Origin: Candidatus Binatia bacterium
GTDB taxonomy: Bacteria > Desulfobacterota > Binatia > UBA9968
Length of the DNA stretch: 33,797 bases
Assembly (NCBI GenBank): GCA_044869705.1
Contig: JBIOXP010000115.1
Location: forward strand, 1 to 33,797
Reading direction: 5' to 3'
Below, in pieces: positions 1 to 16,401 of this stretch. Both the position numbers and the translations under genes were made by a program. The stretch's first letter is position 1. Each line of letters starts with the position of its first letter. The notes under the pieces were generated by a model. That model worked only from the letters and a program-made list of their open reading frames with translations, had not been told where the DNA came from and did no database searches.

Positions 1-896
1 TATCTGATGATCCAAGGAAGAATAACAGTCCACGGGAAGAAACCGACCAGCGCAACAACAATGAAGTAATACCACGGCTCCGAGCGATCGAAGCTGGCGC
101 TGGTGTACCGGCCGAAATGCTCCGCCCAAAGATAGTAGTTCAGATATCCCGGGTTGCGCGCGTCCGCCTGAAGATACCAGGGGAGAACGACGGCAAGAAA
201 AACTCCAGCGCCAGGAATCAGGTAAATTCGACGCAAGATCTGCCAATCTCGACGCAGTAAAATAAAAAGAAAGAACACGATCCCGGGAATCACGAACGCG
301 ACCAAGCCCTTGACGAGGGTTCCCGCCGCGAGAGCCAGATACAGCGCCAGACAAAGAGCCGCGCGCCGGCGACGATCCTCCGTATGCGCTGCTTCGTAGA
401 AAGCCAATAGCGCGACCGTTTGAAAGAAAGTAAGCAGCATATCGAAGATCACGATCCGGGCGAGAATAAAAAATTCAACGCTGGTCACGAGAATCAGCGT
501 GCTCCATAAAGCAACCCAGCGTCCCCAATGGGAGCGAGAAAAAAAATAGATCAACAGGACACAACCGAGCGCCGACAACAGCGAAGGAAGCCGCGCGCTC
601 CATTCCGACACGCCCAAGAGCTTGTACGAAAGGGCGATCAGCCAATAAAAAAAGATCGGTTTGTCCAGAACCGGGTAGAAATTTTCATGCGGCGTGACCC
701 AATCGTTCAGCAGGAGAATTTCTCGAGCTTTTTCGGCGTTACGACCTTCATCGGGCTCGAAAAGCGCTGCGCCCCCCAACCGATAGAGGAGGATGAAACC
801 AACCACCGCGACCACAAGCCATGGCAGCCAATCGTGTGGCAGGTCGCCGGAAGAGCGGGCTTGAGAAGAATCGGCGATCTTTTCGGCGCGCGACAA
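1..896 (-). CDS. ArnT/PMT-family (GT39/GT83, GT-C fold) membrane glycosyltransferase, 3' end runs off the window
   Basis: Not in the ORF track; manual minus-strand translation gives ...LFEPDEGRNAEKAREILLLNDWVTPHENFYPVLDKPIFFYWLIALSYKLLGVSEWSARLPS...ARIVIFDMLLTFF...LVKG..., which carries the DE, KP..YW, RLPS and KG motifs of ArnT-like proteins. An in-frame TGA lies just upstream; the TTG start at 896 is tentative. Confidence 0.85.
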   Translation of the reverse strand, partial: MSRAEKIADSSQARSSGDLPHDWLPWLVVAVVGFILLYRLGGAALFEPDEGRNAEKAREILLLNDWVTPHENFYPVLDKPIFFYWLIALSYKLLGVSEWSARLPSLLSALGCVLLIYFFSRSHWGRWVALWSTLILVTSVEFFILARIVIFDMLLTFFQTVALLAFYEAAHTEDRRRRAALCLALYLALAAGTLVKGLVAFVIPGIVFFLFILLRRDWQILRRIYLIPGAGVFLAVVLPWYLQADARNPGYLNYYLWAEHFGRYTSASFDRSEPWYYFIVVALVGFFPWTVILPWIIR

Positions 897-1077: not shown

Positions 1078-1281
1078 ATGTTCGGCAGTCTTGGCGCTCC
1101 AGAATTGATCGTAATTTTTATCGTCGCCCTGTTGGTCTTCGGACCGAGCAAACTTCCTGAGCTCGGCAAATCGCTCGGAGAAGCGATTCGCGGTTTCAAG
1201 AAGGCGATCAATGATGCCGAGAATACTCCGGCCGATAATCCACAAGTGCTGCAAGACTCCAAAAACCGACCGCAATCGTAA
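1078..1281 (+). CDS. tatA: Twin-arginine translocase TatA/E subunit
   Basis: MFGSLGAPELIVIFIVALLVFGPSKLPELGKSLGEAIRGFKK is the classic TM helix, FG hinge, amphipathic helix pattern; strong SD. Confidence 0.95.
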   Translation: MFGSLGAPELIVIFIVALLVFGPSKLPELGKSLGEAIRGFKKAINDAENTPADNPQVLQDSKNRPQS

Positions 1282-1316
1282 GCTCGGATCACGCGCTCTG
1301 CTCTCCAGGATGAGCG

Positions 1317-2540
1317 ATGACACCGGACTGCCAATCTCGGATTTACTGGCTCGTCACGCTACTACTGCTCGCGGCAGCGACACCCGGCCATTCACAGCAG
1401 CCGGTTGCAAGTTTTTACTATGACGAGCGCGGCAGCGTGACGCGCCAGGAGCAGGATACCAATCGGGATGGCAAAATGGATCGCTGGATCTATTATGACT
1501 CGAGCGGACAGATCCAGCGGATCGAACAAGACGTCAATTTTGACGGCAAACCCGATACGACCGTCTACTACGAATCCGGAAGGCCAGCACGTCAAGAACT
1601 TGCCAGTAAGAATGACGGGCAGATCGATACTTGGCTTTATCTCAACAGCCAAGGCGAAGTTGAGCGTAAAGGCCAAGATACAAGCCATACTGGCCAACCG
1701 ACTTTATGGGTCTACTACGAAAAGGGGCAACCGGTCCGGAGCGAGGAGACGGGCAGCAACGGCAATGCTCAGCAACGACGCGTTTTTTATAAGGACGGCA
1801 AAATTGTCCGCATCGAAGAAAGCACCAACGCCGACGGCAAGCCCGATACTTTTTCTTATTTTGACAACGGCCAATTGGTGCGCAAAGAGATCGATCGCAA
1901 ACATACCGGCAAGATCGACCTCTGGGGTTATTATCAGGATAATCGCCTGATCAAACAGGAAGAGGATCTCCACGGCGATGGCAAGGTTAGCCGAGTCGTC
2001 TACTTTCGCGGTGATGAGGTGATCCGCCGAGAGGAGGATACGGGTCGTCGCGGCCGTATGGACATGGTCGAATTTTTTTCTGTCGGCCGACTGATAAAGC
2101 GGCTGCGTGACACCAAAGGCACCGGCAAATGGGATACCGTCTACTACTTTGAAGACAATCAACTCGTGCGCGAAGAACGCGATACAAAAAATAGCGGCGT
2201 GCTTGATTTTAGGACTATTTACGATAAAGGGCAGATTGCTGCTCAAGAGGCGGATACAAACGGTGATCGCCGAGTTGATGTCTGGGTCAATTTTCAAAAC
2301 GGCGAGCGCCTCGAACAGCTCGAAGACCAAAACTATCAGGGAAAAATTACCGCTCGTTATAGTTTCAAAGGCGGGCAGGTGATTGGGCAGGAGACTTTGG
2401 ACAGTGTCGAGCCGCCACGAGTTTCCAAGCCGTTCAACACGATCGAAGAAGAGCTCAAAAGCGCTCTCGAGGCAACCGCGATACAGACCCCGGCCAGCAA
2501 CTCCGTTTCCGGATTGGTTTTGGACCGACAAATAAAGTAA
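1317..2540 (+). CDS. Exported beta-hairpin repeat protein (13 x ~24-aa DxNxDG-containing repeats; MORN/YwqK/YD-like), function unknown
   Basis: Sec-type signal (WLVTLLLLAAATPGHS|QQ), then tandem repeats such as RQEQDTNRDGKMDRWIYYDSSG and RIEQDVNFDGKPDTTVYYESG. Confidence 0.85.
   Translation: MTPDCQSRIYWLVTLLLLAAATPGHSQQPVASFYYDERGSVTRQEQDTNRDGKMDRWIYYDSSGQIQRIEQDVNFDGKPDTTVYYESGRPARQELASKNDGQIDTWLYLNSQGEVERKGQDTSHTGQPTLWVYYEKGQPVRSEETGSNGNAQQRRVFYKDGKIVRIEESTNADGKPDTFSYFDNGQLVRKEIDRKHTGKIDLWGYYQDNRLIKQEEDLHGDGKVSRVVYFRGDEVIRREEDTGRRGRMDMVEFFSVGRLIKRLRDTKGTGKWDTVYYFEDNQLVREERDTKNSGVLDFRTIYDKGQIAAQEADTNGDRRVDVWVNFQNGERLEQLEDQNYQGKITARYSFKGGQVIGQETLDSVEPPRVSKPFNTIEEELKSALEATAIQTPASNSVSGLVLDRQIK
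1443..2384 (+). repeat. Protein-level tandem repeat array, 13 units of 24-25 codons
   Basis: Consensus R-x-E-x-D-x-[NK]-x-[DT]-G-x-x-D-x-W-x-Y-[YF]-x-x-G counted by eye over residues ~43-356; degenerate at DNA level. Confidence 0.85.
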
Positions 2541-2564
2541 CATCCGCCTTTCGAGGCTGTATTG

Positions 2565-3716
2565 ATGAGCGCGCGATTAAGTGTATTGCTGTTAGTGCAG
2601 GTGATCGCGCTCTCCGCCTGCGAGCCGGTGGCAGTTCAGTATCCAGCTGGCTCGTCCGGGCAAAATCCCGCCAACCCTCCGAATACGTCGCCGGCAGCGC
2701 CTCAGAATCCCGACATTACCGGCTCCCAGCGCTGGCAGCACGCATGGAGTAAGGCGATGGAAGGCATTGCCATGGGCGGTTCCCTTGCTGGCCCGTACGG
2801 TGCCGGCGGCGGATTGATCATTGGCCTTATCACCGGGTTGATTACCGCTGACGCGCACTACGGTCAGATTAACAATCAGATCTCTACAGAGCAGAAAAAA
2901 GACCAGCAGCTCGAAGCTGCCATCGATCAAGAACTAGCGCGTCAGCGCGGCTTGGAAAATCAAATCTCCAAAGCCGGCGATGGCGGCACCGGAACCGAGG
3001 TTGTAGAACCGGTTCCTAATACTACGGCTCAGCCACAAGGGTCTGCACCACCAGTATCGACCAAGCAGCCGGCCGAGAACGCCGTGATCGCATCGCTGGG
3101 CAAACCCGTGCCTCAAACGCCGCCAACGCCATTTAAAAATGTTGAAGTGCGTGACATAAACGGCGACGGTGTCGCCGATTTGTGGATTTACTATAACCCA
3201 CAGAAGCCGGGCGAAATTATTCGTCAAGAAGAGGCGACAAAAGGGGACGGCCGCGTCGATGCGTGGAGCTACTTCAAAGACGGCAAAATGGTTCGGCGTG
3301 AGGTCGATACGAAACAATTCGGCAGGCCCGATACGGTGTATTTCTACGACAACGACAAACTCGTTCGCGAGGAGCGTGATGAGACCGGCCTGGGGAGTAT
3401 GACTTATCGCGCCATTTATCAAGATGGCCGACTAGCCAAGCTCGAGAGAGACACGAGCGGCAGTGGGCGGCCCGATCTGTGGGTTTATTATGATGCCACC
3501 AGAGACGGCGAGATCGTCGTCAAAGAAGAGCGCGACCTCAACGCCGATGGCGTCGCCGACTTATGGAGCTACTATGACAATGGCCGCCTCGTTCGGCGCG
3601 ATGTCAGTGCTCTCGGCCTCGAAATACTCTCGAAGAAAGAAGAGCTTCCCGCGCCGATCACCGAACTGACGAAAATTTCTGTTCCCGGTAACGAAAATGC
3701 AGCAGATCACCGCTGA
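2565..3716 (+). CDS. Lipoprotein with glycine zipper, coiled coil and ~6 DxNxDG beta-hairpin repeats, function unknown
   Basis: Lipobox LSAC; GIAMGGSLAGPYGAGGGLIIGLITG; QINNQISTEQKKDQQLEAAIDQELARQRGLENQ; repeats such as RDINGDGVADLWIYY and RDLNADGVADLWSYYDNG. Start is ATG 2565 or TTG 2562. Confidence 0.85.
   Translation: MSARLSVLLLVQVIALSACEPVAVQYPAGSSGQNPANPPNTSPAAPQNPDITGSQRWQHAWSKAMEGIAMGGSLAGPYGAGGGLIIGLITGLITADAHYGQINNQISTEQKKDQQLEAAIDQELARQRGLENQISKAGDGGTGTEVVEPVPNTTAQPQGSAPPVSTKQPAENAVIASLGKPVPQTPPTPFKNVEVRDINGDGVADLWIYYNPQKPGEIIRQEEATKGDGRVDAWSYFKDGKMVRREVDTKQFGRPDTVYFYDNDKLVREERDETGLGSMTYRAIYQDGRLAKLERDTSGSGRPDLWVYYDATRDGEIVVKEERDLNADGVADLWSYYDNGRLVRRDVSALGLEILSKKEELPAPITELTKISVPGNENAADHR
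3141..3606 (+). repeat. Protein-level repeat array, ~6 units of the same repeat as 1443-2384
   Basis: Same consensus; two units carry 3-aa loop insertions (YNPQKPGE, YDATRDGE). Confidence 0.8.
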
Positions 3717-4719
3717 TTGGGAAGACTCTGGCGTTCTCGCGCTGTTTCGCAGTCCTTTTCTCATCCCATCGGTTTTGTTTCACTCGATCCTTGCGTTGCT
3801 CGCGTTCCGTGCAGCAATGTTGCCGATCGTGAAACCTGAACAGACGCCGATTTCAGTCCAGCTACTGGAACCACGGGAAGGAACATCGTCAAACAAGAGC
3901 ATCGGGTCCGGCAGCGGTCCTGGCGGACCGCGAACCATGCCAAAATTGGGCACGGCGAAACCGCCCGTGCAACAAACCGGAAAATTGGATCAGGGTTCCA
4001 TTGAAAGTTCGGTCCCGAGCAACACTCCCACCGAGGCCGCGCCACCGCCCAAGCCCGCGCCTCTGCCGGCTCCGAAGATTTTGGCTTCAGATTCGCACGC
4101 CGATTCGGTAAACGCGAAAGAAACTTCACCGGACTCGTTCGTGCGCTTGCCGACCAAAGAAAGTCCGACCACTCTTCCCGGCAATCCTACTGATCTCGAT
4201 CTCCGTCAGCAGCAATCTCTTGCAGCGCTCAAGGGCGCGGGGGAAGGCCCTGGGATCAAGGCGCTCAAAGAAGGTGCGCAGATACCCGGCGCACTTAAAG
4301 GAACCGGATCTGGGCTGGCGCCCTACGGCGTTCCCGGTGGCAGCGCTAGCGGTACGGGATCAACCGGTGGCGGTACGGGAAGCGGCACCGGCGGCGGCAG
4401 CGCGACCGGATTGAGAGGGCTGTCCAGCGCCGATTACAATCAATATCTCAGCCAACTCAAAAAAAGAGTGGAGTCTGTGTGGAAGTATCCTGACGGTGTC
4501 AACGGCGTGCAAAAAGTCGCGATCTTGTTCACGCTCGACAAAGCGGGTCGACTCGTGCGCTCCGAGGTGCTGGAGTCCACCGATACCAGGCTGAATGCGA
4601 GCGCGGTCGAAGCGATGAAGCGTGCATCACCATTCCCGCCGATTCCGGAGACGCTGAAAGACTTGGCCAACACCCCTCTGCGCATGCAGTTTACCGTCAC
4701 GATCGGCGTGCGCGGTTAG
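3697..4719 (+). CDS. TonB/TolA-family energy transducer
   Basis: N-terminal TM with S-x3-H (SVLFH), Pro/Gly-rich linker, C-terminal TonB_C/TolA-like domain (YLSQLKKRVESVWKYP...FTLDKAG...AVEAMKRASPFPPIP). Confidence 0.9.
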   Translation: MQQITADWEDSGVLALFRSPFLIPSVLFHSILALLAFRAAMLPIVKPEQTPISVQLLEPREGTSSNKSIGSGSGPGGPRTMPKLGTAKPPVQQTGKLDQGSIESSVPSNTPTEAAPPPKPAPLPAPKILASDSHADSVNAKETSPDSFVRLPTKESPTTLPGNPTDLDLRQQQSLAALKGAGEGPGIKALKEGAQIPGALKGTGSGLAPYGVPGGSASGTGSTGGGTGSGTGGGSATGLRGLSSADYNQYLSQLKKRVESVWKYPDGVNGVQKVAILFTLDKAGRLVRSEVLESTDTRLNASAVEAMKRASPFPPIPETLKDLANTPLRMQFTVTIGVRG

Positions 4720-4755
4720 TCATCCTGCCCGGAAACAGTCCCAATCCGCCCGGGT

Positions 4756-4790
4756 TTATTGCAATAATTTTCCTATAAGGTAATCATCAT
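4756..4790. promoter_or_regulatory. Candidate operator/internal promoter upstream of the exbB-like gene
   Basis: Perfect 12-bp palindrome TTATTGCAATAA (4756-4767) in an AT-rich gap, followed by GGTAATCATCATC (partial Fur-box similarity). Confidence 0.35.
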
Positions 4791-4812
4791 CCGATCATCG
4801 GAAGGAAAGTTC

Positions 4813-5439
4813 ATGCAGCCGCAAGGTCTCGACCTTATCGACATTATCCATAAAGGCGCCATAGCGACTTACCCGTTAATTCTCCTGTCCATCATCAGCT
4901 TGACTGTGGTGTTTGAGCGTCTATGGTCGCTCCGAAATCTTGGTGCGATTACGCTTCGAGTCACTGAATCGATTCTCGAACCCGTCAAAAAAGGCCAGCG
5001 CGATTTGGCGATTGCCATTTGTAAGCAAAACTCCAATTGGCCGGTCGGCAGAATTTTTTTGAATATCCTGGAACGGGAAAGCAGCACGCGCCTGGAAGCC
5101 GCCAATGCCATCGTTACCGAAGCGCTCTTCGAAGAAACTCAGAAATTGAAGAAAAATCTCTGGATTCTGGGAACAGTGGCCAGCAGCGCGCCTTTTATTG
5201 GCCTTCTCGGCACGGTGGTGGGAATCATTAAGTCGTTCGAGAGCATGGCGATCGCCGGAACCGGCGGTTTTGCCGTCGTCGCTGCGGGCATATCCGAGGC
5301 CTTGGTCGCTACGGCGTTAGGTCTCGGCGTTGCGATTATCGCAGTCATTTTTTACAACTATTTCCAAACCCGCATCTCGATGCTCACGGGCCTCTTTCGC
5401 ATTCAAGCCGCCAAAGTTGTCCAGCTCATGAGCGCGTGA
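4813..5439 (+). CDS. MotA/TolQ/ExbB proton channel protein
   Basis: LGTVASSAPFIGLLGTVVGIIKSF and AGISEALVATALGL signature helices. Confidence 0.95.
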   Translation: MQPQGLDLIDIIHKGAIATYPLILLSIISLTVVFERLWSLRNLGAITLRVTESILEPVKKGQRDLAIAICKQNSNWPVGRIFLNILERESSTRLEAANAIVTEALFEETQKLKKNLWILGTVASSAPFIGLLGTVVGIIKSFESMAIAGTGGFAVVAAGISEALVATALGLGVAIIAVIFYNYFQTRISMLTGLFRIQAAKVVQLMSA

Positions 5440-5446
5440 GGATTGT

Positions 5447-5872
5447 ATGGCTATGACGCAGCTAGGCGGAAGCGAAGACAGTTCTGATATCGTCGCCGAG
5501 ATCAATATCACGCCTTTGACGGATATTTTCCTCGTGCTGTTGATTATTTTCATGATCACCAGTTCGGCAATGATCGAATCCGGTGGAAAAGTGAATCTGC
5601 CGAAAGCCGTTGCGACTCAATCAGAATCACGCGGCACAACGGTGACGATCACACCGAAACACGAAATTTATGTCGATCAGAAAATCATCAAGGAAGAAAA
5701 TCTCGAAAAAGTCCTTCAGGATGCGCTCAACAATCGCGCTGACAAGACCGTGATCCTTCGTGGCGACAAGGATGTGTTGCTCGGCGACACCGTCAAGGTG
5801 ATGTCGATGATCAAACGCGCCGGCGCTTCGGAGATCGCCATCGCGGCTGAAGCGGAAAGAAAGAGTCGCTAG
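5447..5872 (+). CDS. ExbD/TolR biopolymer transport protein
   Basis: EINITPLTDIFLVLLIIFMIT (conserved Asp), VNLP, and LRGDKDV...VMSMIKRAG. Confidence 0.95.
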   Translation: MAMTQLGGSEDSSDIVAEINITPLTDIFLVLLIIFMITSSAMIESGGKVNLPKAVATQSESRGTTVTITPKHEIYVDQKIIKEENLEKVLQDALNNRADKTVILRGDKDVLLGDTVKVMSMIKRAGASEIAIAAEAERKSR

Positions 5873-5896: not shown

Positions 5897-7147
5897 TCAG
5901 CGCGCCGGTCCGTCGGTGGGCGGCGGCAACTGCTGCGGCTTGTTCAGGCTATCTTCACGATTGCGCTCGATTTCCCGCTGAATTTCCGCCGGACTTTTAC
6001 CCAGCCGGTTGACTTCGAGTTGCAGATTCTTTTCCTTTTCCAGGAAGACTTCCAAGTCCAAGGATTTTTGCGTGCCGGGCTGATAATAAACCGTGATCGA
6101 TTCACGACTGTTGGTGCCATCACTCGCCCGCGCCAAGACATCGATCTGATTTTTTCCTTCCGCAACCGGGACTGCCGAAGAAAAAAATCCATCGGCGGCC
6201 AACCGTAATTGCGTCGCGTTCTGCGCGATGGTCTGGTTGACGACCTGCACGTAATCGACGCCCACCACCGAAATGTTTTCCAGCACCGCCAGTGCATCCG
6301 CCGGCCGCATCACGGGCGTATACGTGCCGCCGCTCTCTTTGGCAATACCACTCGCGGCGCGCGGATAGGAGAGCGCCTCCTCCCCGAGCGCGAAGACGTG
6401 AATCTTGATGCTGGCTTTTCCAGCCAAGCGTGCCGCGTTGATCGTCAGCGCGACGTCCTCCGGTGTCATTCTCTTACTCTCGCCGATCGGCAGGGTTGGA
6501 AACCCGTCGGTGAGAAGAAATTGCACTTTGATCGCATCGGTGCGTTTTTCGCTGCTGCCAAATCCCATCAACTCACTGATGCCCAGCCGTATCCCTTCCA
6601 CCATGTTGGTGCCGCCATAAGAACCCGAGCGCAGCACGTCGCCCAAGACTTTTCGAACCCGTTCGAAATCGTGCGTGAGCGGTTGGAGCAAATTGGCGCG
6701 CTCGCTGAAGCTCAAGACGCCGACGCGCGTCGTCTCATGGTTCAGCTGAAGGAGCAGGCGGCGTGCCGCCGCCACCTCGGCGGCCAGAACGGAATTTCTC
6801 GGGTTGCGCACCGGCGGTCCGCCGAGATTCATGCCGCCAATGCTGATTTGCGGCATCGGAAAACCGGTGCTTCCCGGAGGCTGATCGGCATCGCCCAAAT
6901 CCGCGCCGGCATAAAGTGCGGTGCTGCCCGAAACATCGATCAGCAAAAAGATATCGACGTTCGCCGATCGCCCGGCTTCCCGCGCGACCTTACCGCTGAC
7001 TAATACTGATTTTTGATCCTGGGTGATCTGTGTGCCGTTTTTCGGCGAAAGGATCTGTAATTTGGGTTGTGCGGAGGCAATGGAGTCCAAACCAATGCTA
7101 CAGAAAAATAATGAGAGACCAACGAGAGCACATCGAAACAGGTCCAT
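5897..7147 (-). CDS. Exported von Willebrand factor A (VWA) domain protein with Ig-like flanks
   Basis: Signal peptide ending ASA|Q; MIDAS motifs DVSGS, GGTN and LTDG; flanking beta segments LQILSPKNG..VLVSGKV and DGFFSSAVPVAEGKNQIDVLARASDG. Confidence 0.88.
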   Translation of the reverse strand: MDLFRCALVGLSLFFCSIGLDSIASAQPKLQILSPKNGTQITQDQKSVLVSGKVAREAGRSANVDIFLLIDVSGSTALYAGADLGDADQPPGSTGFPMPQISIGGMNLGGPPVRNPRNSVLAAEVAAARRLLLQLNHETTRVGVLSFSERANLLQPLTHDFERVRKVLGDVLRSGSYGGTNMVEGIRLGISELMGFGSSEKRTDAIKVQFLLTDGFPTLPIGESKRMTPEDVALTINAARLAGKASIKIHVFALGEEALSYPRAASGIAKESGGTYTPVMRPADALAVLENISVVGVDYVQVVNQTIAQNATQLRLAADGFFSSAVPVAEGKNQIDVLARASDGTNSRESITVYYQPGTQKSLDLEVFLEKEKNLQLEVNRLGKSPAEIQREIERNREDSLNKPQQLPPPTDGPAR

Positions 7148-7253: not shown

Positions 7254-7985
7254 ATGTTGAAGGCTAGCGTCATAGCAGGGCTGCTCTGCGTGAGTTTCGG
7301 CATCGCGAACGCACAGTACGTCGTCGTTTTAAAGAACGGGCGGCAACTGGTGGTGCAGAATTATCGCGAGGAAGGCAGCATGATCAAGTTTTCTGGCGCC
7401 GGCGGAGAAATCGGGATTAGCAAGGATCAGGTTCAAATGATTCGCCGCGCAGACGCCTCGGAGAGCGCGGCCGTGCCTGGCGTGTCATTAGATCGTCCGC
7501 CGCCATCAGCTGTCGCGGAAAGTCCGCCGACGCCGAGCGCACAGCCGGAGATGAAATCACCGGCTGTGGTTTCCGGCGACCAGCAGCAAGCCAAAAAGCG
7601 AGCACAAGAAGCCAAAGCCTATGAGGACCGGCTCAAAGACTTGACCGCACAACTGAAAGAATTGCGCGAGCGCTATTCTTTAATGACGCGAGGCAACCAG
7701 GGCCCCGAGCCGAGCTTTTTTACCACCGAAGAAGCCTTCAAAGGCCATCAGGAAGATTTGTTGTCACGACTTCGCGACGCGCAGAACAAAGCTCAAGGAC
7801 TGCCGCTCGGCGGCGCCGCGACATCGCCGCCATTTTCCCTCGACCCCCCGACAGCCTATTCCGACCGGCAAAAGCAGTTGAGCGACTTAAGAGCTCGCAT
7901 CAGTCAAGTCGAAAACGAGCGACAAAGCGTGATCGATGAGATGAGAGCAAAAGGATTCGAAGTCGGTTCGCTATTTTTGGAGTAA
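7254..7985 (+). CDS. Exported hypothetical protein (small N-terminal beta domain, Pro-rich linker, coiled coils)
   Basis: Signal peptide ending ANA|Q; VVLKNGRQL...ISKDQVQMI; heptad-rich segments. The stop overlaps the 3' end of aroQ. Confidence 0.75.
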
Positions 7986-8442: not shown

Positions 8443-9519
8443 CTACTTTCCTAATGCGGCCAAAACTTCCCTAGGCGAAAGCCAATGGAAACGAGTCTTC
8501 CCGATCCCTTCAGACATGACAAACTTGATTCTTCCCTCGGCTGCTTTTTTGTCCAGCTGGATAGCTTGAATCACGCTCTGCAGCGATACGCCGGCGGGAA
8601 TTTCGCTTGGCAATCCCGCCTCTGTGATGATCTTGAGAATGCGCTCAAAGCTTTGCTGATCACAGAAACCGAGCTGCATCGAGAGCATGGCAGCTTTGAC
8701 CATACCGACGGCCACGGCCTCGCCGTGGAGAAACTGCCGGTAATCGGTAGCCGCTTCCAACGCATGCCCAATCGTGTGCCCGAAGTTGAGCACGGCACGC
8801 TGATTTTCCTCGCGCTCGTCCATTTCCACGATTCGCGCCTTGATGGAACAAGACGTCACGATGATTCGCTGCAACAAATCGCGATCGAGCGCGACGATCT
8901 TTGTCAATTTTTTTTCCAGATCCCCAAAGAGCTGCGGATCCTCGATGATGCCATATTTGATCACCTCGGCGAGTCCCGCAAGGAGCTCTCGTTGGGGCAG
9001 TGAGGCGAGCACGTTGACGTCGATGAGAACGAGCTTCGGTTGATAAAAAGCGCCGATCAGATTTTTGCCGTTTTCATGGTTGACGCCGGTTTTGCCGCCG
9101 ACGCTTGAATCGACTTGAGCGAGCAATGTCGTGGGCACTTGGACATAGGGCACGCCGCGGAGATAAGTGGCCGCGGCAAACCCGGCGAGGTCGCCTATGA
9201 CACCACCGCCCAGCGCGAGCACAGATGATTTTCGCTCACATCTTTCGGCGATCAGCCGGTCGTAAATGGTCGTCAGTGATTTAGAGCTCTTGTGTTCCTC
9301 GCCATCGGGCACCAAGATCGGGACGACTTCAAAGCCGGCGTAATCGAGCGCGCCATGCACCGCATCGAGGTATAATTGTGCGACCGTCGGGTTTGTGACA
9401 ACGGCGACTTTGCCAGCCAATCCAGATTCCCGAAGCCGTTGGCCGAGGCTATCGAGAATACCGGCGCCGACATAGATGGGGTAAGAACGGTCGCCCAAAT
9501 TAACGTTTAGGGTTTCCAT
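8443..9519 (-). CDS. aroB: 3-dehydroquinate synthase
   Basis: [45 protein letters not shown]. Confidence 0.98.
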
Positions 9520-10126
9520 CCGGCGGTTTTTTTCTGACCTCGAGCATGCCGATAATTTTTTTTACCACCTGATCCACGGTTAGATTGCTGGTGTCGATCG
9601 TCACATGAGCCTGGGCATACCGCGATCCGCGCTGGCGCAGCAGAGCCTCGATTTTTTCCCGGCGATCGCTTCCTTGCAGAAGGGGTCTTTTGCTTGCATC
9701 ACCGGCCCTCGCAAGCAGAACATCCAACTCCGCGGAAAGCCCGATCAACAGCGCCTTGTCTCGGAGTATCTGGATATTTGCATCGTCGAGAATGACTCCG
9801 CCGCCGGTGGCGATCACCTGGTTATTCGCTTCCAGCACCGTCGTTAGCGCCTGTTTTTCCAGCTGGCGAAAGTATGCCTCGCCTTTCCGTTCAAAAATCT
9901 CTCGTACCTTGCTGCCTTCGGCTTTTTCGATGACTCGATCCAGATCGACGAAGCGCCGGCGCAGCCTTCTTGCCAATGTGCGACCAATCGCACTCTTTCC
10001 CACCGCCATGAACCCGATGAGTGCGATGTTTTTCTCCAATGTCTCGGACCGAGGTTCGTGACTTACCGCGGCATCCGACCTAAACCGCACCGCTTCCAAA
10101 CACCGCGTGACCACAAGTTTTGCCAC
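9500..10126 (-). CDS. aroK: Shikimate kinase
   Basis: IGFMAVGKS P-loop, GEAYFRQLE, ATGGG, RPLL. The start is uncertain (TTG at 10039 also plausible). Confidence 0.93.
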   Translation of the reverse strand: MAKLVVTRCLEAVRFRSDAAVSHEPRSETLEKNIALIGFMAVGKSAIGRTLARRLRRRFVDLDRVIEKAEGSKVREIFERKGEAYFRQLEKQALTTVLEANNQVIATGGGVILDDANIQILRDKALLIGLSAELDVLLARAGDASKRPLLQGSDRREKIEALLRQRGSRYAQAHVTIDTSNLTVDQVVKKIIGMLEVRKKPPDGNPKR

Positions 10127-10197
10127 GCCAGCGCAACATCCGCACTATTCGGTCACGACTTCGGCACTCCATACCTGCAGGCTCGGCGCGCATGGGG

Positions 10198-11394
10198 CTA
10201 ATAATTTTTAATTTGCTCCAGATAGTTCTCGTAATTACGCCGCACCTCGCGCAGGGAATCACCGCCGAATTTTTCCAGAAATGCCCGAGCGACCTCAAAC
10301 GCGACGACGGACTCCCCGACCACCGCTGCCGCCGGCGCCGCGCAAACATCCGAGCGCTCCACCGAAGCATCGGCAGGCTGCTTTGAGCGGAGATCCACCG
10401 ACTGCAAAGGACTCATCAAAGTCGAAATCGGCTTCATGGCCACCCTGGCGATCACCGGTGCGCCGTTGCTCATGCCGCCTTCCGTGCCTCCAGAGTTGTT
10501 GCTGCCGCGGTAAAAACCCGTCGGGACGACGCGCGGAGTCCCTTCGCTCACGTCTTTGCTCGGGTCGAAAAAGATCTCGTCGTGAACCTCCGACCCGCGT
10601 CGCCGTGCCATTTCGAAACCGAGCCCGATCTCTACGCCTTTCATGGCTTGGATGCTCATCAACGCACGAGCTAATCGTCCGTCGAGCTTGCGATCCCATT
10701 GGGTATGCGAACCCAATCCTGGAGGTAAACCGAGCACGACAACTTCGAAGATCCCGCCGAGCGTGTTGCCTTCTCTTTTACACTCCTCGATCAATGCGAT
10801 CATTTTTTCTTCGGCTTCTGGATCGGCAGTTCGGACCGGCGACTCTTCCGAGCGGGCGTAGATCTCATTGAAGGAAAGCCGATCGAGATTCGCCAGGACA
10901 TTGCCGATCGAGCGTATGTAGCCCATGATGCGGATCTCGAACGGGGCCAGCAGTTGTTTGGCGAAAGATCCAACCGCCGTTCGCGCCACGGTCTCGCGCG
11001 CGCTCGCTCGTTCGAGAATATCGCGAATATCCGAGCGATCGTATTTAAGCGCGCCGTTGAGGTCGGCATGTCCGGGACGCGGTTTGGTGACAGCGATTTT
11101 CTCGTCGCGGTCTTCGGGAAGCGCGGACATTTTCTTTGTCCAATTTTTCCAGTCCCGGTTCTCGATGCCCAGCGCCACGGGCGCGCCGATGGTTTCCCCC
11201 CAGCGAATCCCAGAACGGACTTGTGCTTCGTCTTTCTCGATCAACATTCGGCCGCCGCGTCCGTAGCCCTGCTGACGCCGCCAAAGATCATGATTAATTT
11301 TTTCGATTTGTATCGGAAAGCCCGCCGGCACCCCATCGATAACCATTGTGAGGCACGGCCCGTGTGATTCGCCCGCAGTCAAATAACGCAACAT
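10198..11394 (-). CDS. aroC: Chorismate synthase
   Basis: TAGESHG, RRQQGYGRGGRM, PRPGHAD, ERASARET, MKPISTL, ERSD. Confidence 0.98.
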   Translation of the reverse strand: MLRYLTAGESHGPCLTMVIDGVPAGFPIQIEKINHDLWRRQQGYGRGGRMLIEKDEAQVRSGIRWGETIGAPVALGIENRDWKNWTKKMSALPEDRDEKIAVTKPRPGHADLNGALKYDRSDIRDILERASARETVARTAVGSFAKQLLAPFEIRIMGYIRSIGNVLANLDRLSFNEIYARSEESPVRTADPEAEEKMIALIEECKREGNTLGGIFEVVVLGLPPGLGSHTQWDRKLDGRLARALMSIQAMKGVEIGLGFEMARRRGSEVHDEIFFDPSKDVSEGTPRVVPTGFYRGSNNSGGTEGGMSNGAPVIARVAMKPISTLMSPLQSVDLRSKQPADASVERSDVCAAPAAAVVGESVVAFEVARAFLEKFGGDSLREVRRNYENYLEQIKNY

Positions 11395-11428
11395 GCGGGG
11401 CTATCCTAGCGTAATAACTTACACCAGG

Positions 11429-13453
11429 CTAGGGGTTCCCCGGCTGCATAACCGCGACTGGTTGTCCGTTGGTTTTCTTCATCTGCTCGCGCCACAGTTG
11501 GTCGGCCGTTGGCAGGTTCTCCGAGCCGGCCGACGCGATCCGGGGTGTGATAAAGACGACCAGCTCTTCGAAGTCTTTCTGAATGCGCCAGTTTTTGAAC
11601 AACCAGCCGAGCACCGGAATGTCTTTTAGATATGGAATGCCGGCGGTGGAATTGTTGTCGGTGTCTTTGAGAATACCGCCGATGACAATGGTTTCACCGT
11701 CCTTCACTAGGACATTCGCTTCAGCTTCGCGATTGAGCTCGTCGAAGGGAACCACCGGCGAGCCTGTGCCGGCCGGCACGGTTGGCGAGTTTGCAATTGA
11801 GCTTGATTTCACTTTGATGTTCATGAGCACGAAACCATCGCTCGAAACCTGTGGGACCACGGTCAGATTGATCCCGACGTTAATTTTTTCCGTCGCCACC
11901 GCGGTTCCGGCTGCGGCGCCGCTGCCGCTGGCGATATTGGTCGAGCTTGGCAGCACGATCCGGAGAACGCGCTCGCTCTTAATGGTCGAGGGAATGTTAT
12001 TGAGCGTCACCACGGACGGCCGGGAAATAATCTTTACCAGGCCCTCATTTTCCGCGGCCGACAAAAGCCCCGCGACGTTGTTGCCAAAATAGCCGAAGCG
12101 AAACCCTGAATTTGGCACCGGCAATGCCGGTATGCTTACCGGAATACCCGCTGCCGATCCCGCGAACGGCGCGCCGGCGAGGAATCGTGAGCTCGTGATG
12201 ACCCGGCCATTGTTGAAAAGCGCATCGAGTTCCATTCCGAGAGATTGCGCAAACGTCGGTGTGGTTTCGACGAGGTTCGACTCGATCAGCACCTGGGACG
12301 TTCTCAGGTCGAATTTGCCCACCAACAAACTCACGTCGTCGATCGATGTTTGCACGTCGCGCACCATGATCGAGTTGCTGCGCTCGTCGATCACCAGTGC
12401 ATTATCCGCACGCTTGCTCATCAGCGGCCGAATCTTGGCTTCCAAGTCTTTGGCCTTGGCATAGTTCAGCGTAAAATAAACCGTCTGCATCGGCTCGAGA
12501 TCTTCTTTGGCTTTCTTCGCCGCAACCAATGCGTCCTTTTCCGCCTTGAGTGCTCCGGCCGTCGAGATCCGCACGACGTTGCCGATCTGTTCCTTATCGA
12601 GTCCGTTGGTTGCGATGAGCAAGTCCATCGCTTGGTCCCATGGCACTTCCACCAGACGCACCGTAACCCGGCGATTGACATCGTTGGTGACCACAATGTT
12701 CAAACCGCTGACTTCAGCGAGCAGACGAAATACATTTTTGATGTCGGCATCCTTGAAGTCGAGCGAGATCTTTTGACCCGTATAGGTCTTTTCGTTTGCG
12801 CGATCTTCGCCGGGCTGCAGTTTCCCCCGCGAATCACTGTTCGCACCGGTGTTTTTCTGCTGTACGTCCTGGCGTTGGCCGCCGCGGACCAGAACTACGT
12901 CACGTTTGACATTAATGGTGGGATCTAGTGCGCCAACGGTAATTTTTAATCCACCCTCTTCCGGAGCTACGGTATAGGCGGGAACGCTAGCGGCCGCGAT
13001 CTCCACGACCAGACGAAACGCCGTCTCGCCGGAGCTCAGCCGCAACGCCGACACGACGCTGGTATCAATCCGGAATAGCTCGTTGGATGGCGCCGCTTTC
13101 GCGCCGTCCAAGAGATCCAGTACGATCCGCGCCGGCTGCGGCAAAGTAAAATGGCGGTACTGGGTGATCGGTTGAGCAAATTTAATCAGCAGCGTCGTTT
13201 GTCCTTTTTCTTCGCGCACGCTCAGCTCTTGCACGCTCTGCATTCCAGTCGCCGTACCTGGTGGGATGCCGTTCGCCGGCATGGGGGACACCGGAGCTTG
13301 TGCGGCCGGTCGGATCGGCGCTTCTTTGCTCGTGGCACACCCGATGAGGCTGATCGCAGCCAAGGCGCAAATCAATCCGAACTCGAGGATTCGGAGTTGC
13401 GGATCGCGCCGCAGTTCAATATTTCGGGCAAGCATGTTCCTGCTTTTTATCAT
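11429..13453 (-). CDS. pilQ: Type IV pilus secretin PilQ
   Basis: AMIN-like domain (FTLPQPARIVLDL), YTGQKISLDFKDADIKNVFRLLAEVSGLN, VPWDQAMD, secretin core ETIVIGG..GIPYLKDIPVLGWLF..ELVVFITPRI. The start could be the second Met (13435). Confidence 0.95.
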   Translation of the reverse strand: MIKSRNMLARNIELRRDPQLRILEFGLICALAAISLIGCATSKEAPIRPAAQAPVSPMPANGIPPGTATGMQSVQELSVREEKGQTTLLIKFAQPITQYRHFTLPQPARIVLDLLDGAKAAPSNELFRIDTSVVSALRLSSGETAFRLVVEIAAASVPAYTVAPEEGGLKITVGALDPTINVKRDVVLVRGGQRQDVQQKNTGANSDSRGKLQPGEDRANEKTYTGQKISLDFKDADIKNVFRLLAEVSGLNIVVTNDVNRRVTVRLVEVPWDQAMDLLIATNGLDKEQIGNVVRISTAGALKAEKDALVAAKKAKEDLEPMQTVYFTLNYAKAKDLEAKIRPLMSKRADNALVIDERSNSIMVRDVQTSIDDVSLLVGKFDLRTSQVLIESNLVETTPTFAQSLGMELDALFNNGRVITSSRFLAGAPFAGSAAGIPVSIPALPVPNSGFRFGYFGNNVAGLLSAAENEGLVKIISRPSVVTLNNIPSTIKSERVLRIVLPSSTNIASGSGAAAGTAVATEKINVGINLTVVPQVSSDGFVLMNIKVKSSSIANSPTVPAGTGSPVVPFDELNREAEANVLVKDGETIVIGGILKDTDNNSTAGIPYLKDIPVLGWLFKNWRIQKDFEELVVFITPRIASAGSENLPTADQLWREQMKKTNGQPVAVMQPGNP

Positions 13454-13458
13454 TATCG

Positions 13459-14067
13459 CTACTCCGTTGAGAGTCGCATCGCGATATCGCGTTTTTTTCG
13501 CGCTCCATAAGCATCTTCATAAACTTCCTCGACAATGATCTGGTCGCGCCGGATTATCTTCACACGACCGTCATTACTGCCAATCGGAGTTCCAACTTTG
13601 ACGGTGTAGCCGAGGCCGGCGCTGTCCTCGACGATCGCTCGCGGCTCCTTGATATCCCAGACAATCCCGACGATCTTAAGTTGCCCGATGTCGAGGCGTT
13701 CGAGCGGCGATAGACTCTCACGTGAGCGCGACAGCGCAGTGGTTTTGAGCGTCATCGGACGGAAGGGATCGCGCCCCTCCGGTTTCATCACGTGCGCCGG
13801 CGGTGCAATTTCGGGTTTTTTCTGCGGCACCGTCATGTCGATCAGCTTGGATTCCGGCGCTGGCTTTTCACTCCCGGATAGCTGCTTTAGTTTCGTTGCC
13901 GCCGCATCGGTTAAACCCCGTAAACTCTGGCCAATGCTCGCCGGCACCTTGTTCAACTTGCCCGTAGCTTCTCTCATCTTACCCGACGGCAGCGGTTCTT
14001 CGGCGCCGTGGCTCAATGCGGCGAGGCTCAGACAAAGCACGATGACAATTTTCCTTGGCGAATGCAT
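13459..14067 (-). CDS. pilP: Type IV pilus assembly protein PilP
   Basis: GRDPFRP, SPLERLDIGQLKIVGI, VKVGTPIGSNDGRV; position between pilO and pilQ. Confidence 0.9.
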   Translation of the reverse strand: MHSPRKIVIVLCLSLAALSHGAEEPLPSGKMREATGKLNKVPASIGQSLRGLTDAAATKLKQLSGSEKPAPESKLIDMTVPQKKPEIAPPAHVMKPEGRDPFRPMTLKTTALSRSRESLSPLERLDIGQLKIVGIVWDIKEPRAIVEDSAGLGYTVKVGTPIGSNDGRVKIIRRDQIIVEEVYEDAYGARKKRDIAMRLSTE

Positions 14068-14072
14068 CGATC

Positions 14073-14696
14073 TTATTTCTTGGTTTTGGCCGCTTTCGCC
14101 TTCTCTTCGGCAATTTTCTTTCGCTCCACATCATCGAGAAAGCGAAACGCGGTAGCGACGCTGGTGGTCTCCAACACCACGTTGTCGCCACTGACGGTGG
14201 GATTCTTGAAGCCTATGTTATCGATGTTCACGAGCCGATCCATTCGTCCCACTTCATCAAAAAAACTCACCGTGTTGTGAAAAGTGCCTTTGACCGTAAT
14301 GTCCACCGGTACTTCCGCATAAAAGTCTTGATAGCTCTCGCCGCGCGGCCGAAACAGAAGAACATCAAGCCCCGACTGTTGGGCTTTGCTGGAAATGCTG
14401 CTCAGCAATTCGGGAATTTCCTTTTTCTCGGGTAACTGAGCTATCGCCTTTTTGAGCTCGGCATCGAGACGTTGCAGATCTTGACGCAGCCGCGATACGT
14501 TTGCTGCCTTTTGGGTCTTGACGGTTTTCTCGTTGCGCGCGATCTCCACACTATCGGCCAATTTCGCGATCTCGTCGGCTTTCGGGGCGAACAAAAAACT
14601 GTAGTAGAGCGCGACCATTAAAATCACAGTCACTGCGAGAATTGCGATTTTCTGCGCAGTCGAACGCTCTAGGATCGCGTCGAGGACTTGATTCAA
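14073..14696 (-). CDS. pilO: Type IV pilus assembly protein PilO
   Basis: TM, coiled coil, QLPEKKEIPELL, FYAEVPVDITVKGTFH...RLVNI; TTG start overlaps the pilN stop. Confidence 0.93.
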   Translation of the reverse strand: MNQVLDAILERSTAQKIAILAVTVILMVALYYSFLFAPKADEIAKLADSVEIARNEKTVKTQKAANVSRLRQDLQRLDAELKKAIAQLPEKKEIPELLSSISSKAQQSGLDVLLFRPRGESYQDFYAEVPVDITVKGTFHNTVSFFDEVGRMDRLVNIDNIGFKNPTVSGDNVVLETTSVATAFRFLDDVERKKIAEEKAKAAKTKK

Positions 14697-15304
14697 TGCT
14701 TCTCCTCTTTTTTTACGGCAACAGCCGCCGCGGGTGTGCTGCTCACGGGAATGGTTTCCGCCGGGCGATACACAATCGTTGTTTTAAGAGCGAACTTTTT
14801 CAATGTGGCGCTCGGGCCAGCGCCTTGAGTCGTTTCCACCAGCTCGACATCCTTAAAATACCTCGATTGCGCGATCGCCTTCATAAAGTCGGCGATCGTT
14901 TGATTGTCGGTGGCGAGCCCGTTCATCGTCAGGCTGCCGGCAGTTTCTTTGAAGTCCGTCAACCAAAGACTCGCGGGAATCGCGCTCGAAAGACTTTCCA
15001 TGACCAACACCGGCCCGCTCTTTTTCCTGTTCAGGTCTTCGATGATTTTGTTTTTGCTGCGGAAATCTTTGATTTTATTCTGCAGGTCGCCAACCTCTTT
15101 AACTTTTGCCGTCAGAGTTTGGAGTTCGGCGCGCAACGCCGAGAGTTCATTTTGCAGCTGTGAGAGCTCCCGCGATTGATAAACCAGCGCGCCGATCAAA
15201 AGCGCCGCTAAAGAGCCGAGAACGCACGAACCGATGATAATTTCGCGCCGGCGCGTGACCTCGGCTTGCAGCGCTTTGATCGGGAGTAAATTGACCCGAA
15301 TCAT
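14693..15304 (-). CDS. pilN: Type IV pilus assembly protein PilN
   Basis: N-terminal MIRVNLLP motif, TM, coiled coil, IPASLWLT. Confidence 0.93.
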   Translation of the reverse strand: MIRVNLLPIKALQAEVTRRREIIIGSCVLGSLAALLIGALVYQSRELSQLQNELSALRAELQTLTAKVKEVGDLQNKIKDFRSKNKIIEDLNRKKSGPVLVMESLSSAIPASLWLTDFKETAGSLTMNGLATDNQTIADFMKAIAQSRYFKDVELVETTQGAGPSATLKKFALKTTIVYRPAETIPVSSTPAAAVAVKKEEKH

Positions 15305-16401
15305 TTGTCTCCCGCGCGGCGAATTGACAATCCAGCGCCCACCGCAAAGTAGGGGGCCGCTTCCGTTAAAAACTCTCGATCGATGTTTTTGCTAATTGTG
15401 AAACGCCGGAACGGCTCGCTCAAACGCACCGGCACCGCCATGCGCTCCTCGAGTAAAGTTCGTAAGCCGGCGAGCTTCGCGCCGCCACCGCTGATGTAGA
15501 GCATCTTGAGACCATCGCCATCCTCGGACGAAAATCCGCCGTAGAGGCTTACGGTTCGCCTGATTTCCTCGGCAAGCTCTTCCGACATCGGACGCAGCGT
15601 TGATTCCAAGTTAAGACCGTTGTTGCCGTCCAAGATGGCGGTGGTCTTAAACGTTTCAGCGGCTTCTATCGAGATGCCGAGCTGGCTTGCCAGGCTGTCC
15701 GTGAAATAGGCTCCTCCGAGCGACAAGTCTCCGGTAAAAATTGAAATTCCGTTCTGCAGAAGTGTCATGCTCGTATACTGCGCGCCGATATGAATGATTC
15801 CGGTCACGCCGTGTTCGGCTTCACCCGCATAATTCGCTTCGTACATATTTTCCAAGGCGAAGTAATCGACGTCCATCACCATGGGCGTCAACCCAGCCTC
15901 TTCGATCGCATCGGCATAGCTGTTGATGATTTCTTTCTTCACCGCAACCAACAAAACTTCCATCTTGTTGCCGCCGTCGATTTCCTGCAGGACTTGATGA
16001 TCGAGATTGACGTTCTCGAGATTTTCCGGAATGACACTCTGTGCTTCGAATTCGATATTGGCTTCAAGTTCCGCGGGCTCTTGTTTAGGCATTTGCACTT
16101 TCTTCATAATGACCGCCCGCCCCGGCACGGCGGAAATCACCTGTGTGGATTTGACGCGGTTCTCACTGATGAGCTTGCGAATGCTTTCAACCACCGGTTT
16201 GGAGTCCACGACCATATTGTTCTGAATGGCATGATCGGGCAGCGGCAGAATACCCAGGCTGAGGATTCGATAACCATTTCGATCGACCGCGGCTTCGATC
16301 ATTTTGACCGAACTCGAGCCGATATCGAGCGCCACGTAGCCGTCCTTAGCGGCAAAAAGGTTTAGCCGCCCCGGACTAAAATTTTTCAGAAAAGCCAACA
16401 T
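15301..16401 (-). CDS. pilM: Type IV pilus assembly protein PilM
   Basis: Actin-like LDIGSSSVK, DVDYFALEN, SGGGAKL, AVGAGLSIR; heads pilMNOPQ. Confidence 0.95.
   Translation of the reverse strand: MLAFLKNFSPGRLNLFAAKDGYVALDIGSSSVKMIEAAVDRNGYRILSLGILPLPDHAIQNNMVVDSKPVVESIRKLISENRVKSTQVISAVPGRAVIMKKVQMPKQEPAELEANIEFEAQSVIPENLENVNLDHQVLQEIDGGNKMEVLLVAVKKEIINSYADAIEEAGLTPMVMDVDYFALENMYEANYAGEAEHGVTGIIHIGAQYTSMTLLQNGISIFTGDLSLGGAYFTDSLASQLGISIEAAETFKTTAILDGNNGLNLESTLRPMSEELAEEIRRTVSLYGGFSSEDGDGLKMLYISGGGAKLAGLRTLLEERMAVPVRLSEPFRRFTISKNIDREFLTEAAPYFAVGAGLSIRRAGDK

Follow-up and report, generated by a model that had tools for sequence, protein, structure and literature searches.

The window analyzed here, a stretch of 33,797 nucleotides (contig JBIOXP010000115.1, C115), comes from a metagenome-assembled genome (MAG) of Candidatus Binatia, an uncultured soil bacterium (genome G000; 5.48 Mb in 675 contigs, 88.6% complete, 7.1% contamination); the genomes with which it was compared are all MAGs as well. 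At 1078-5872 it carries six open reading frames (ORFs) in one orientation, tatA, repA, repB, a gene for a TonB-like transducer, exbB and exbD (Table 1), which the first-pass annotation had taken, from the sequence alone, for an envelope system driven by the proton-motive force. The co-orientation and close setting of the six genes were confirmed (consecutive spacings of 35, 21, -20, 93 and 7 nt), and repB overlaps the transducer gene by exactly 20 bp, as had been stated. Of the gene set as it had been drawn, the transducer, repA and repB stand as the core, to which a convergent gene for a protein with a VWA domain has to be added, this gene and its neighbor orf243 having been overlooked. Our analysis supports a linkage of the repeat proteins RepA and RepB to the TonB-like transducer and an ExbBD-type motor that goes well beyond plain synteny. 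With a probability of roughly 0.55, the locus represents a clade-specific envelope module (transducer, repA, repB, the VWA gene and perhaps orf243) joined to the lineage's general ExbB-ExbD motor. That the module is a functional one is supported by the co-loss of its genes across genera, by their adjacency after rearrangement, by a fusion, by the same pairing in other lineages and by the exchange of one motor paralog for another.

Table 1. Features of the locus and its borders, in window coordinates.
Feature	Position	Strand	Description
PMT_2 glycosyltransferase, ArnT-like	3-896	-	divergent from tatA; NF009784 148 bits (below cut-off)
tatA	1078..1281	+	TatA/E family, 67 aa; PF02416 TatA_B_E 76.4 bits, TIGR01411 74.8 bits
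repA	1317..2540	+	predicted Sec-exported periplasmic 14-repeat protein; MORN_2 and Lsa25.6 matches sub-threshold only
RepA mature N-terminus	1395-1430		conserved stretch after cleavage
repB	2562 (TTG; ATG at 2565)..3716	+	lipoprotein; Lsa25.6 match sub-threshold only
RepB mature N-terminus	2619-2655		conserved stretch after cleavage
transducer	3697..4719	+	PF13103 TonB_2 37.7 bits (above cut-off, 22); PF03544 TonB_C 21 bits (below cut-off, 24.6)
exbB	4813..5439	+	ExbB/TolQ-family proton-channel subunit; PF01618 MotA_ExbB 113 bits
exbD	5447..5872	+	ExbD/TolR-family subunit; PF02472 ExbD 96 bits
VWA gene	5897..7147	-	convergent on exbD; VWA_2 33.8 bits, Glucodextran_B 38.9 bits
VWA mature N-terminus	7030-7070		conserved stretch after cleavage
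orf243	7254..7985	+	exported coiled-coil protein, divergent from the VWA gene; no Pfam family at cut-off

Conservation and rearrangement of the gene set

Among the 25 loci returned for repA in the close-relative set, 23 belong to true relatives. In these, repB lies directly 3' of repA in 20 of the 21 assessable loci, and the transducer, exbB and exbD follow repB in 15 of the 16 loci with DNA past repB (the exception, L032, has the transducer upstream of repA). The convergent VWA gene comes after exbD in all 14 loci with enough DNA. Its neighbor orf243 is syntenic in both arrangements described below, with tblastn matches adjoining the VWA gene in 10 loci of the window's order (arrangement A) and in L149, L150, L152 and L153. 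The gene tatA, one of three TatA/B genes in G000, does not belong to the core, since only 15 of the 23 related loci were found to have it ahead of repA. The neighborhood check thus bore out the proposed linkage of the repeat proteins with the transducer and the motor, while that of tatA proved peripheral.

On the level of the order, 121 genomes were sampled (the unpublished G275, G280, G298 and G308 are counted in these tallies only). RepA is present in 69 of them, the transducer in 64 and the VWA protein in 69, corresponding to 21-22 of the 27 genera, and all three are absent from the same five genera, namely g144 (0/12), g148 (0/2), g155, g166 (0/28) and g167; 11 listed module-free genomes of g144 are 84-100% complete. 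The genus-level profile of the transducer closely follows that of RepA. Two of the module-free genera, g144 and g148, have kept an ortholog of the window ExbB-ExbD, 63-70% identical, as a pair that stands by itself in a metabolic neighborhood. TonB-dependent receptors are present in seven of the eight tested genomes that harbor a lone window-type motor and no module; in the module-free G213, G233, G265 and G237, which also possess receptors, TolQ and the lone window type are the only motors.

The adjacency of the transducer, repA and repB survives rearrangement, the order being transducer-repA-repB in L032 (genome G270), G212, G215 and G218. In arrangement B, found in G212, G253, G251 and G218, repA-repB faces VWA-exbB'-exbD', and ExbB' is 31-33% identical to the window ExbB; in G270 the VWA-exbB' genes are located on a contig separate from the triad. 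A maximum-likelihood tree of 38 ExbB-family paralogs, all from Binatia, contains five separate 100/99 clades: TolQ, the window type together with the lone pairs, a receptor-adjacent type, a fourth type and the VWA-linked type. The window type and exbB' were mutually exclusive in the nine genomes checked, five genomes with arrangement B being devoid of the former and G000, G002, G003 and G005 of the latter. A motor pair is adjacent to the module in 15 of the 16 arrangement-A loci and in four of the five arrangement-B genomes. That two motor paralogs replace each other in place is evidence of an unusual kind for a motor requirement of the module, and in the preferred explanation the module depends on an ExbBD-type motor; the swap also offers a natural handle on motor-transducer specificity.

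Beyond these relatives, the protein P0014 combines RepA-like repeats with a following C-domain 44% identical to that of the window transducer (E 4e-17); it has no transmembrane (TM) helix. Its C-terminal region (residues 390-525), for which no Pfam family is reported, includes a 'THSWGG' stretch, which we take to resemble the nucleophile elbow of serine hydrolases. A transducer of the window transducer's subfamily is also encoded in three metagenome loci with a GC content of 0.69-0.73 (L081, L083 and L084), where its gene overlaps the 5' end of an ORF for a giant repeat protein (1034 aa in L081 and 1097 aa in L084 (full); 567 aa in L083, where the ORF is ended by the contig edge), and in L083 a MotA_ExbB gene lies just upstream. 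These three transducers share the TM His, a Pro-rich linker and the C-domain signature 'A(M/L)(K/R)xASPF', the TM His being kept in all five transducer sequences that span the lineages. Two apparent repB-transducer fusions were rejected. In L027 a stop codon separates the two genes, and the 647-aa ORF at L018:4098-6041, which joins the last repeat of RepB to the transducer TM helix, originates from an in-frame deletion in a groundwater MAG; as its topology would be implausible for a lipoprotein, this ORF was not used, and it probably reflects a lesion or an error of assembly.

Motor, transducer and partner proteins

The motor-coupling residues are intact, as the first-pass annotation had read them. 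In the transducer, S25-x3-H29 lies in the N-terminal TM helix and is invariant in 12 of 12 orthologs; direct reading of the sequences places the TM Asp of ExbD within 'TPLTDIF' and shows that ExbB carries 'GLLGTVVG'. The helix of the transducer is followed by a linker with conserved Gly/Pro blocks and by a TonB_2-type C-domain with the signature 'AMKRASPFPPIP'. The protein also passes TIGR01352 (40.2 bits; cut-off 27.1), and among solved structures it comes closest to a TonB C-domain (6sly, E 1.1e-5). The C-domain prefers TonB_2 over TonB_C, the former being the model best matched by the TolA of G000 (69.9 bits).

The window ExbB is equidistant from solved TolQ and solved ExbB. The motor fails the equivalog models of TolQ (TIGR02796, 110.8 bits; cut-off 221) and TolR (TIGR02801, 90.8 bits; cut-off 127.3) and is likewise under the cut-offs of the ExbB and ExbD equivalogs; the genome's own TolQ passes the TolQ model at 233 bits. 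Although the window motor scores higher with the TolQ/TolR than with the ExbB/ExbD models, scores of these hidden Markov models were rejected as a classifier, as all non-Tol motors of Binatia, the receptor-adjacent ones included, score higher with TolQ than with ExbB, below the cut-off.

The genome as a whole yielded two MotA_ExbB and two ExbD matches, one pair of which is Tol. The canonical Tol-Pal cluster is split between contig ends, with TolQ on C134 and TolR-TolA-TolB-Pal-CpoB on C594 (TolB, 399.7 bits). The single TonB-dependent receptor is encoded on C431 next to a canonical TonB_C protein (88.5 bits), and, judged by ORF order and sequence starts rather than by a family scan, looks to be surrounded by cobalamin-biosynthesis genes. 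Pfam scans of the window itself found no TonB-dependent receptor (PF00593), TolB or Pal gene, in agreement with the first-pass annotation. Two further canonical TonB_C proteins, on C475 and C33, bring their number to three; the latter (C33:109-1147, L056; 59.5 bits) is divergent from a TatA/B-family gene (40.5 bits), which is the second TonB/Tat-family adjacency within G000. The window motor is therefore the only non-Tol motor found in a genome with three canonical TonBs and one receptor; another genome, G003, has two motors and three receptors. Because its orthologs stand alone in module-free, receptor-bearing genera and because it is the sole non-Tol motor found in G000, the window motor is probably not dedicated to the module and represents the general ExbBD of the lineage, serving receptors encoded elsewhere as well. 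The first-pass annotation had named just this, a motor serving receptors encoded elsewhere, as a finding that would speak against its reading; with lone orthologs in receptor-bearing genera, the objection applies in part.

The repeats noticed in RepA and RepB are real, the unit being a β-hairpin of about 24 residues, which RepA repeats 14 times and RepB about 6.5 times. The strict DxNxDG motif by which they had been named, on the contrary, occurs only twice in each protein (RepA residues 47 and 72; RepB residues 198 and 325). We make no claim of calcium binding by the repeat loops, given that the strict DxNxDG..D motif is found in just two repeats per protein. The AlphaFold2 (AF2) model of RepA has a mean predicted local distance difference test score (pLDDT) of 87.4 and consists of 28 strands, that is, 14 β-hairpins, and a conserved C-terminal helix. 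Its top fold matches are all single-layer β-sheets, namely OspA (Z 9.2), the TCP/G-box of CPAP (Z 9.1) and MORN repeats (junctophilin, Z 8.1). The Rhs/teneurin/Tc shell was discarded, the Foldseek TM-scores of 0.10-0.19 with a root-mean-square deviation above 25 Å reflecting likeness of the repeat unit only. RepA is thus predicted to be a single-layer β-sheet rod with no TolB-like propeller. No solved sequence relatives were found for the RepA profile, and in the phylum sample a RepA-like match (E<=1e-10) occurs in 12 of 201 genomes, full-length in G000 alone.

RepB has the lipobox LSAC, whose Cys20 is conserved without exception in the 12 orthologs compared, followed by a glycine-zipper-like hydrophobic segment, a coiled coil, a disordered linker and the hairpin repeats; AF2 models the repeat domain (190-350) with confidence and the helical part at the N-terminus with low confidence. 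An assignment of the N-terminus to a SlyB/Pcp-type glycine-zipper domain was abandoned, as a Pfam search with the N-terminal 146 aa gave no family, not even at E=10, and no OmpA/Pal-type Pfam match was obtained for RepB. The RepB profile matches 2326 cluster representatives at E<=1e-3, and among the 84 longer ones that were scanned almost none has a named domain. The family is thus large and almost unannotated, and assigning a role to it would therefore touch many genomes. In the protein atlas, the nearest clusters are 'hypothetical protein' clusters of Binatota, and a Myxococcota lipoprotein cluster at 0.75 is a lead only. G000 encodes a third repeat protein on C173 (3-1025, L057), a RepB paralog with the glycine-zipper segment, whose ORF is truncated where the contig begins; either it is a genuine paralog or it may stem from the 7.1% contamination.

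The VWA protein consists of a VWA domain and an Ig-like domain of the Glucodextranase_B type and is secreted or periplasmic, with a cleavable signal of the signal-peptidase-I type and no lipobox. The Sec-type signal peptide and a conserved mature N-terminus are found in nearly all of the 20 sequences compared (the window protein and 19 orthologs; the ORF start of L153 is ambiguous), and in none of the 20 is there a TM helix with a conserved His (SHLS) or Asp. A search against solved structures gave one marginal match (7p70, E 0.0055), presumably spurious. The N-termini left after cleavage are among the most conserved stretches of the three exported proteins (QQPVASFYYDE in RepA, C-DPVPVQYPPGS in RepB and EPKVQILSP in the VWA protein), and they may serve as strands on which the transducer C-domain docks.

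Known systems and the choice of explanation

In the Ton, Tol and Agl-Glt systems, 5:2 proton motors power very different outer-membrane tasks via TonB-like transducers. With Ton, the locus shares the MotA/ExbB channel, the TM Asp of ExbD, and a transducer with an S-x3-H TM helix, a flexible linker and a TonB-type C-domain. However, the window transducer fails the TonB_C cut-off (21 vs 24.6 bits) and matches TonB_2; its phyletic profile tracks RepA, RepB and the VWA protein, not the receptors, and it is absent from module-free genomes that have receptors; and the locus is without a receptor, while the one receptor of G000 has its own adjoining canonical TonB. Likewise, the TonB_2/TolA-like transducer is encoded, as in Tol-Pal, together with a soluble periplasmic protein and a lipoprotein and without a receptor, yet G000 has a separate canonical Tol-Pal cluster, the window ExbB is far below the TolQ cut-off (110.8 vs 221) and the gene order differs. 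So the placement of the repeat proteins in the partner slots of a Ton/Tol-like transducer can be kept from the first-pass annotation, whereas the analogy of RepA to TolB and of RepB to Pal fails, RepA being predicted to be a single-layer rod rather than a β-propeller and RepB having no OmpA-like Pfam match.

We consider the Agl-Glt machinery of Myxococcus the closest analogy for the way in which the module might work. In that machinery, the TonB-C-domain-like GltG and GltJ are described as docking on the periplasmic pillar GltD (PMC11761067), and the VWA lipoprotein CglB as the adhesin (PMC11761067; PMC9946355). The features in common are a motor of the TolQR/ExbBD type, TonB-C-like transducers that do not dock on receptors, lipoproteins, and a VWA protein as the likely output. 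The module differs in having one ExbD gene (no heteromeric TolR pair) and a VWA protein without the lipobox of CglB, and it is set apart by domain content, with no FHA/GYF or porin-like domain in the Pfam scans of the window. For Williams-Jones et al. (2025; PMC12204202), vWA 'force transducers' encoded beside tolQ/tolR-like genes are a sign of undiscovered motor-driven systems; there the vWA protein binds the motor with a TM helix of its own (SHLS) or has a pore helix with an Asp. Arrangement B resembles these systems in that the VWA gene lies directly beside TolQ/ExbB-type and TolR/ExbD-type genes; in Binatia, however, the VWA protein has a cleavable signal and a separate TonB_2-type protein bears the S-x3-H helix. 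Finally, RepA and RepB resemble the MORN-variant and Lsa25.6 proteins (PF07661, NF050087) in the short β-hairpin repeat with aromatic and Gly positions and in fold (Z 8-9), but their scores are under the curated cut-offs (RepA, 24.8 vs 29.6 bits with PF07661 and 65.8 vs 150 bits with NF050087; RepB, 38.5 bits with the latter), and, these sub-threshold matches apart, no sequence similarity of RepA or RepB to any named family was found. At the level of titles and abstracts, the literature on these two families mentions no TonB-like link, and literature searches, whose scope did not extend to the supplements of PMC12204202, returned no TonB-like transducer partnered with MORN-type repeats and no described equivalent of the module. 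The comparison as a whole points to force transduction of the Ton/Tol/Glt type by a motor-driven cell-envelope device for which no described equivalent was found. How many further outputs such motors have is raised as an open question in section 8 of PMC12204202; the locus is a concrete candidate for one, with a distinct transducer subfamily, partners other than receptors and good comparative support, in hosts that are uncultured and with an output that we infer.

The following mechanism can be proposed. A motor of the ExbB5-ExbD2 type would engage the TM helix of the transducer via S-x3-H, as in Ton and Tol, and the linker and C-domain would dock on RepA and/or RepB and not on a TonB-dependent receptor. 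RepA and RepB may scaffold the VWA protein at or beneath the outer membrane, so that the proton-motive force would pull on or remodel the repeat-protein/VWA assembly, with envelope tethering or adhesin presentation as the putative output. In G000, the three canonical TonB paralogs and the receptor of the presumed cobalamin cluster probably draw on this motor too. Docking on RepA was modeled with the periplasmic part of the transducer, a check proposed in the first-pass annotation, and the support obtained is weak: the interface score ipSAE was 0.39 (0.39, 0.43 and 0.37 in individual runs; best control 0.00), a level reached by 116 of 157 solved complexes and two of 215 mismatched pairs, the pLDDT of the partner was about 51 and at least 26% of the contacts were shared between runs.

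Several observations weigh against this explanation. The RepA-transducer score falls in a weak band, as no more than 18 of the 157 solved complexes, but both passing mismatches, have values of up to 0.60, and a physical contact is at most suggested by the model. The flanking PMT glycosyltransferase gene (which precedes repA in 20 of the 23 related loci, in most of them as the immediate neighbor) and aroQ are likewise syntenic in close relatives, and therefore the linkage in these relatives alone could be inheritance; the genomes being kin, the co-loss may come down to three or four independent events. The window-type motor occurs without the module, so its adjacency could be secondary, and the finding of only two motors in G000 may be an undercount, considering the completeness and contamination of this genome. 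In three genomes of g150 the transducer-like match comprises the C-domain only and is 4 kb away from repA, and L016:5741-7221 is a tatA-repA pair alone, without repB, transducer or motor. (This paralogous pair lies between the genes of a DUF4410 protein and pyruvate kinase; its genome, G005, carries a window-type ExbB elsewhere, at C2:354295, which belongs to the window-type clade of the tree.) A high-GC clade has the layout patatin-like phospholipase (-), RepB-like lipoprotein (+), VWA (-), with patatin in six loci (L060-L063, L067, L069), VWA in five (L059, L063, L064, L066, L067) and, in L063, an OmpA-family gene that follows, upstream of VWA; none of the nine high-GC loci with context (L059-L064, L066, L067, L069) has a transducer or motor. 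The repB-VWA linkage is thus the widest one and can evidently work without a motor, and among metagenome loci a TonB-like neighbor was found in just 4 of 43. As for expression, tatA-exbD may form one transcription unit, of which a 193-nt contig from soil RNA that matches the window without a difference and covers 1226-1418 (the stop of tatA and the start of repA) is a weak hint; RNA libraries kept as contigs cannot prove a single transcript, and here they cover small shares of the window, the uncovered parts being uninformative. The single promoter-like site of the first-pass annotation was not recovered: a sigma-70 scan passed no site upstream of tatA (5 sites in the region as a whole vs 3.2 expected), and TTGACA at 1027 is paired with a -10 hexamer matching at only three of six positions.

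On the strength of such motorless loci, one could regard RepB and the VWA protein, with RepA, as a passive scaffold or adhesin with no energy need, for which the transducer would be an inner-membrane anchor or a peptidoglycan-spanning tether. The absence of a TM helix from the P0014 fusion and the separation of the triad from VWA-exbB' in G270 are in keeping with this, but the S-x3-H motif invariant among orthologs, the His preserved across lineages and the steady presence of a motor pair, recruited from two different paralogs, beside the genes make us consider it unlikely. Ordinary synteny is slightly less probable still. In that case a housekeeping Ton system would have stayed by descent beside unrelated exported proteins, with RepA, RepB and the VWA protein unconnected with the motor, as the syntenic block from the PMT glycosyltransferase to aroQ, which includes clearly unrelated genes, the lone motors of receptor-bearing genera and the distant motorless repB-like/VWA pairs might suggest; it is difficult to reconcile with the loss of the transducer together with repA, repB and the VWA gene while the motor is retained, with the triad that outlasts rearrangement, with the second motor paralog that arrangement B has among these genes, with the P0014 fusion and with the same transducer subfamily adjoining repeat proteins in GC-rich lineages. 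The least probable is a self-contained six-gene second Tol-like machine with its own motor and tatA and with RepA in the place of TolB and RepB in that of Pal, stabilizing or remodeling the outer membrane, for which the tight gene order with its 20-bp overlap, the TolA-like preference for TonB_2, the TolQ/TolR-leaning motor scores and the recurrence of the tatA-repA pair in L016 may be cited, but these scores do not classify, the motor is the sole non-Tol one found for three TonBs and a receptor and has orthologs without the module, tatA was detected in only 15 of 23 loci, RepA is modeled as a rod and not a propeller, RepB has no OmpA-type Pfam match, and G000 already holds a full Tol-Pal cluster.

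The preferred explanation, a clade-specific module joined to the general motor of the lineage, can be carried further by analogy. The module might be a trans-envelope machine driven by the proton-motive force, a small counterpart of the focal-adhesion complex of myxobacteria, in which the motor would pull via a dedicated transducer on the stiff RepA rod and its lipoprotein twin RepB and so move, expose or tension a VWA adhesin, contributing to adhesion or surface motility of Binatia, two motor paralogs having been recruited to it separately; we regard this elaboration as unlikely.

Neighboring genes

A search of eight of eight proteins with the PADLOC models of anti-phage defence, which include systems such as Zorya with MotAB-like stators, detected no family at E<=0.001. 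Directly past the VWA gene and orf243, the minus strand of the window (8443-16401) carries a type IV pilus assembly operon, pilM-pilN-pilO-pilP-pilQ, whose PilQ has AMIN and STN domains, and then aroC, aroK, aroB and aroQ.

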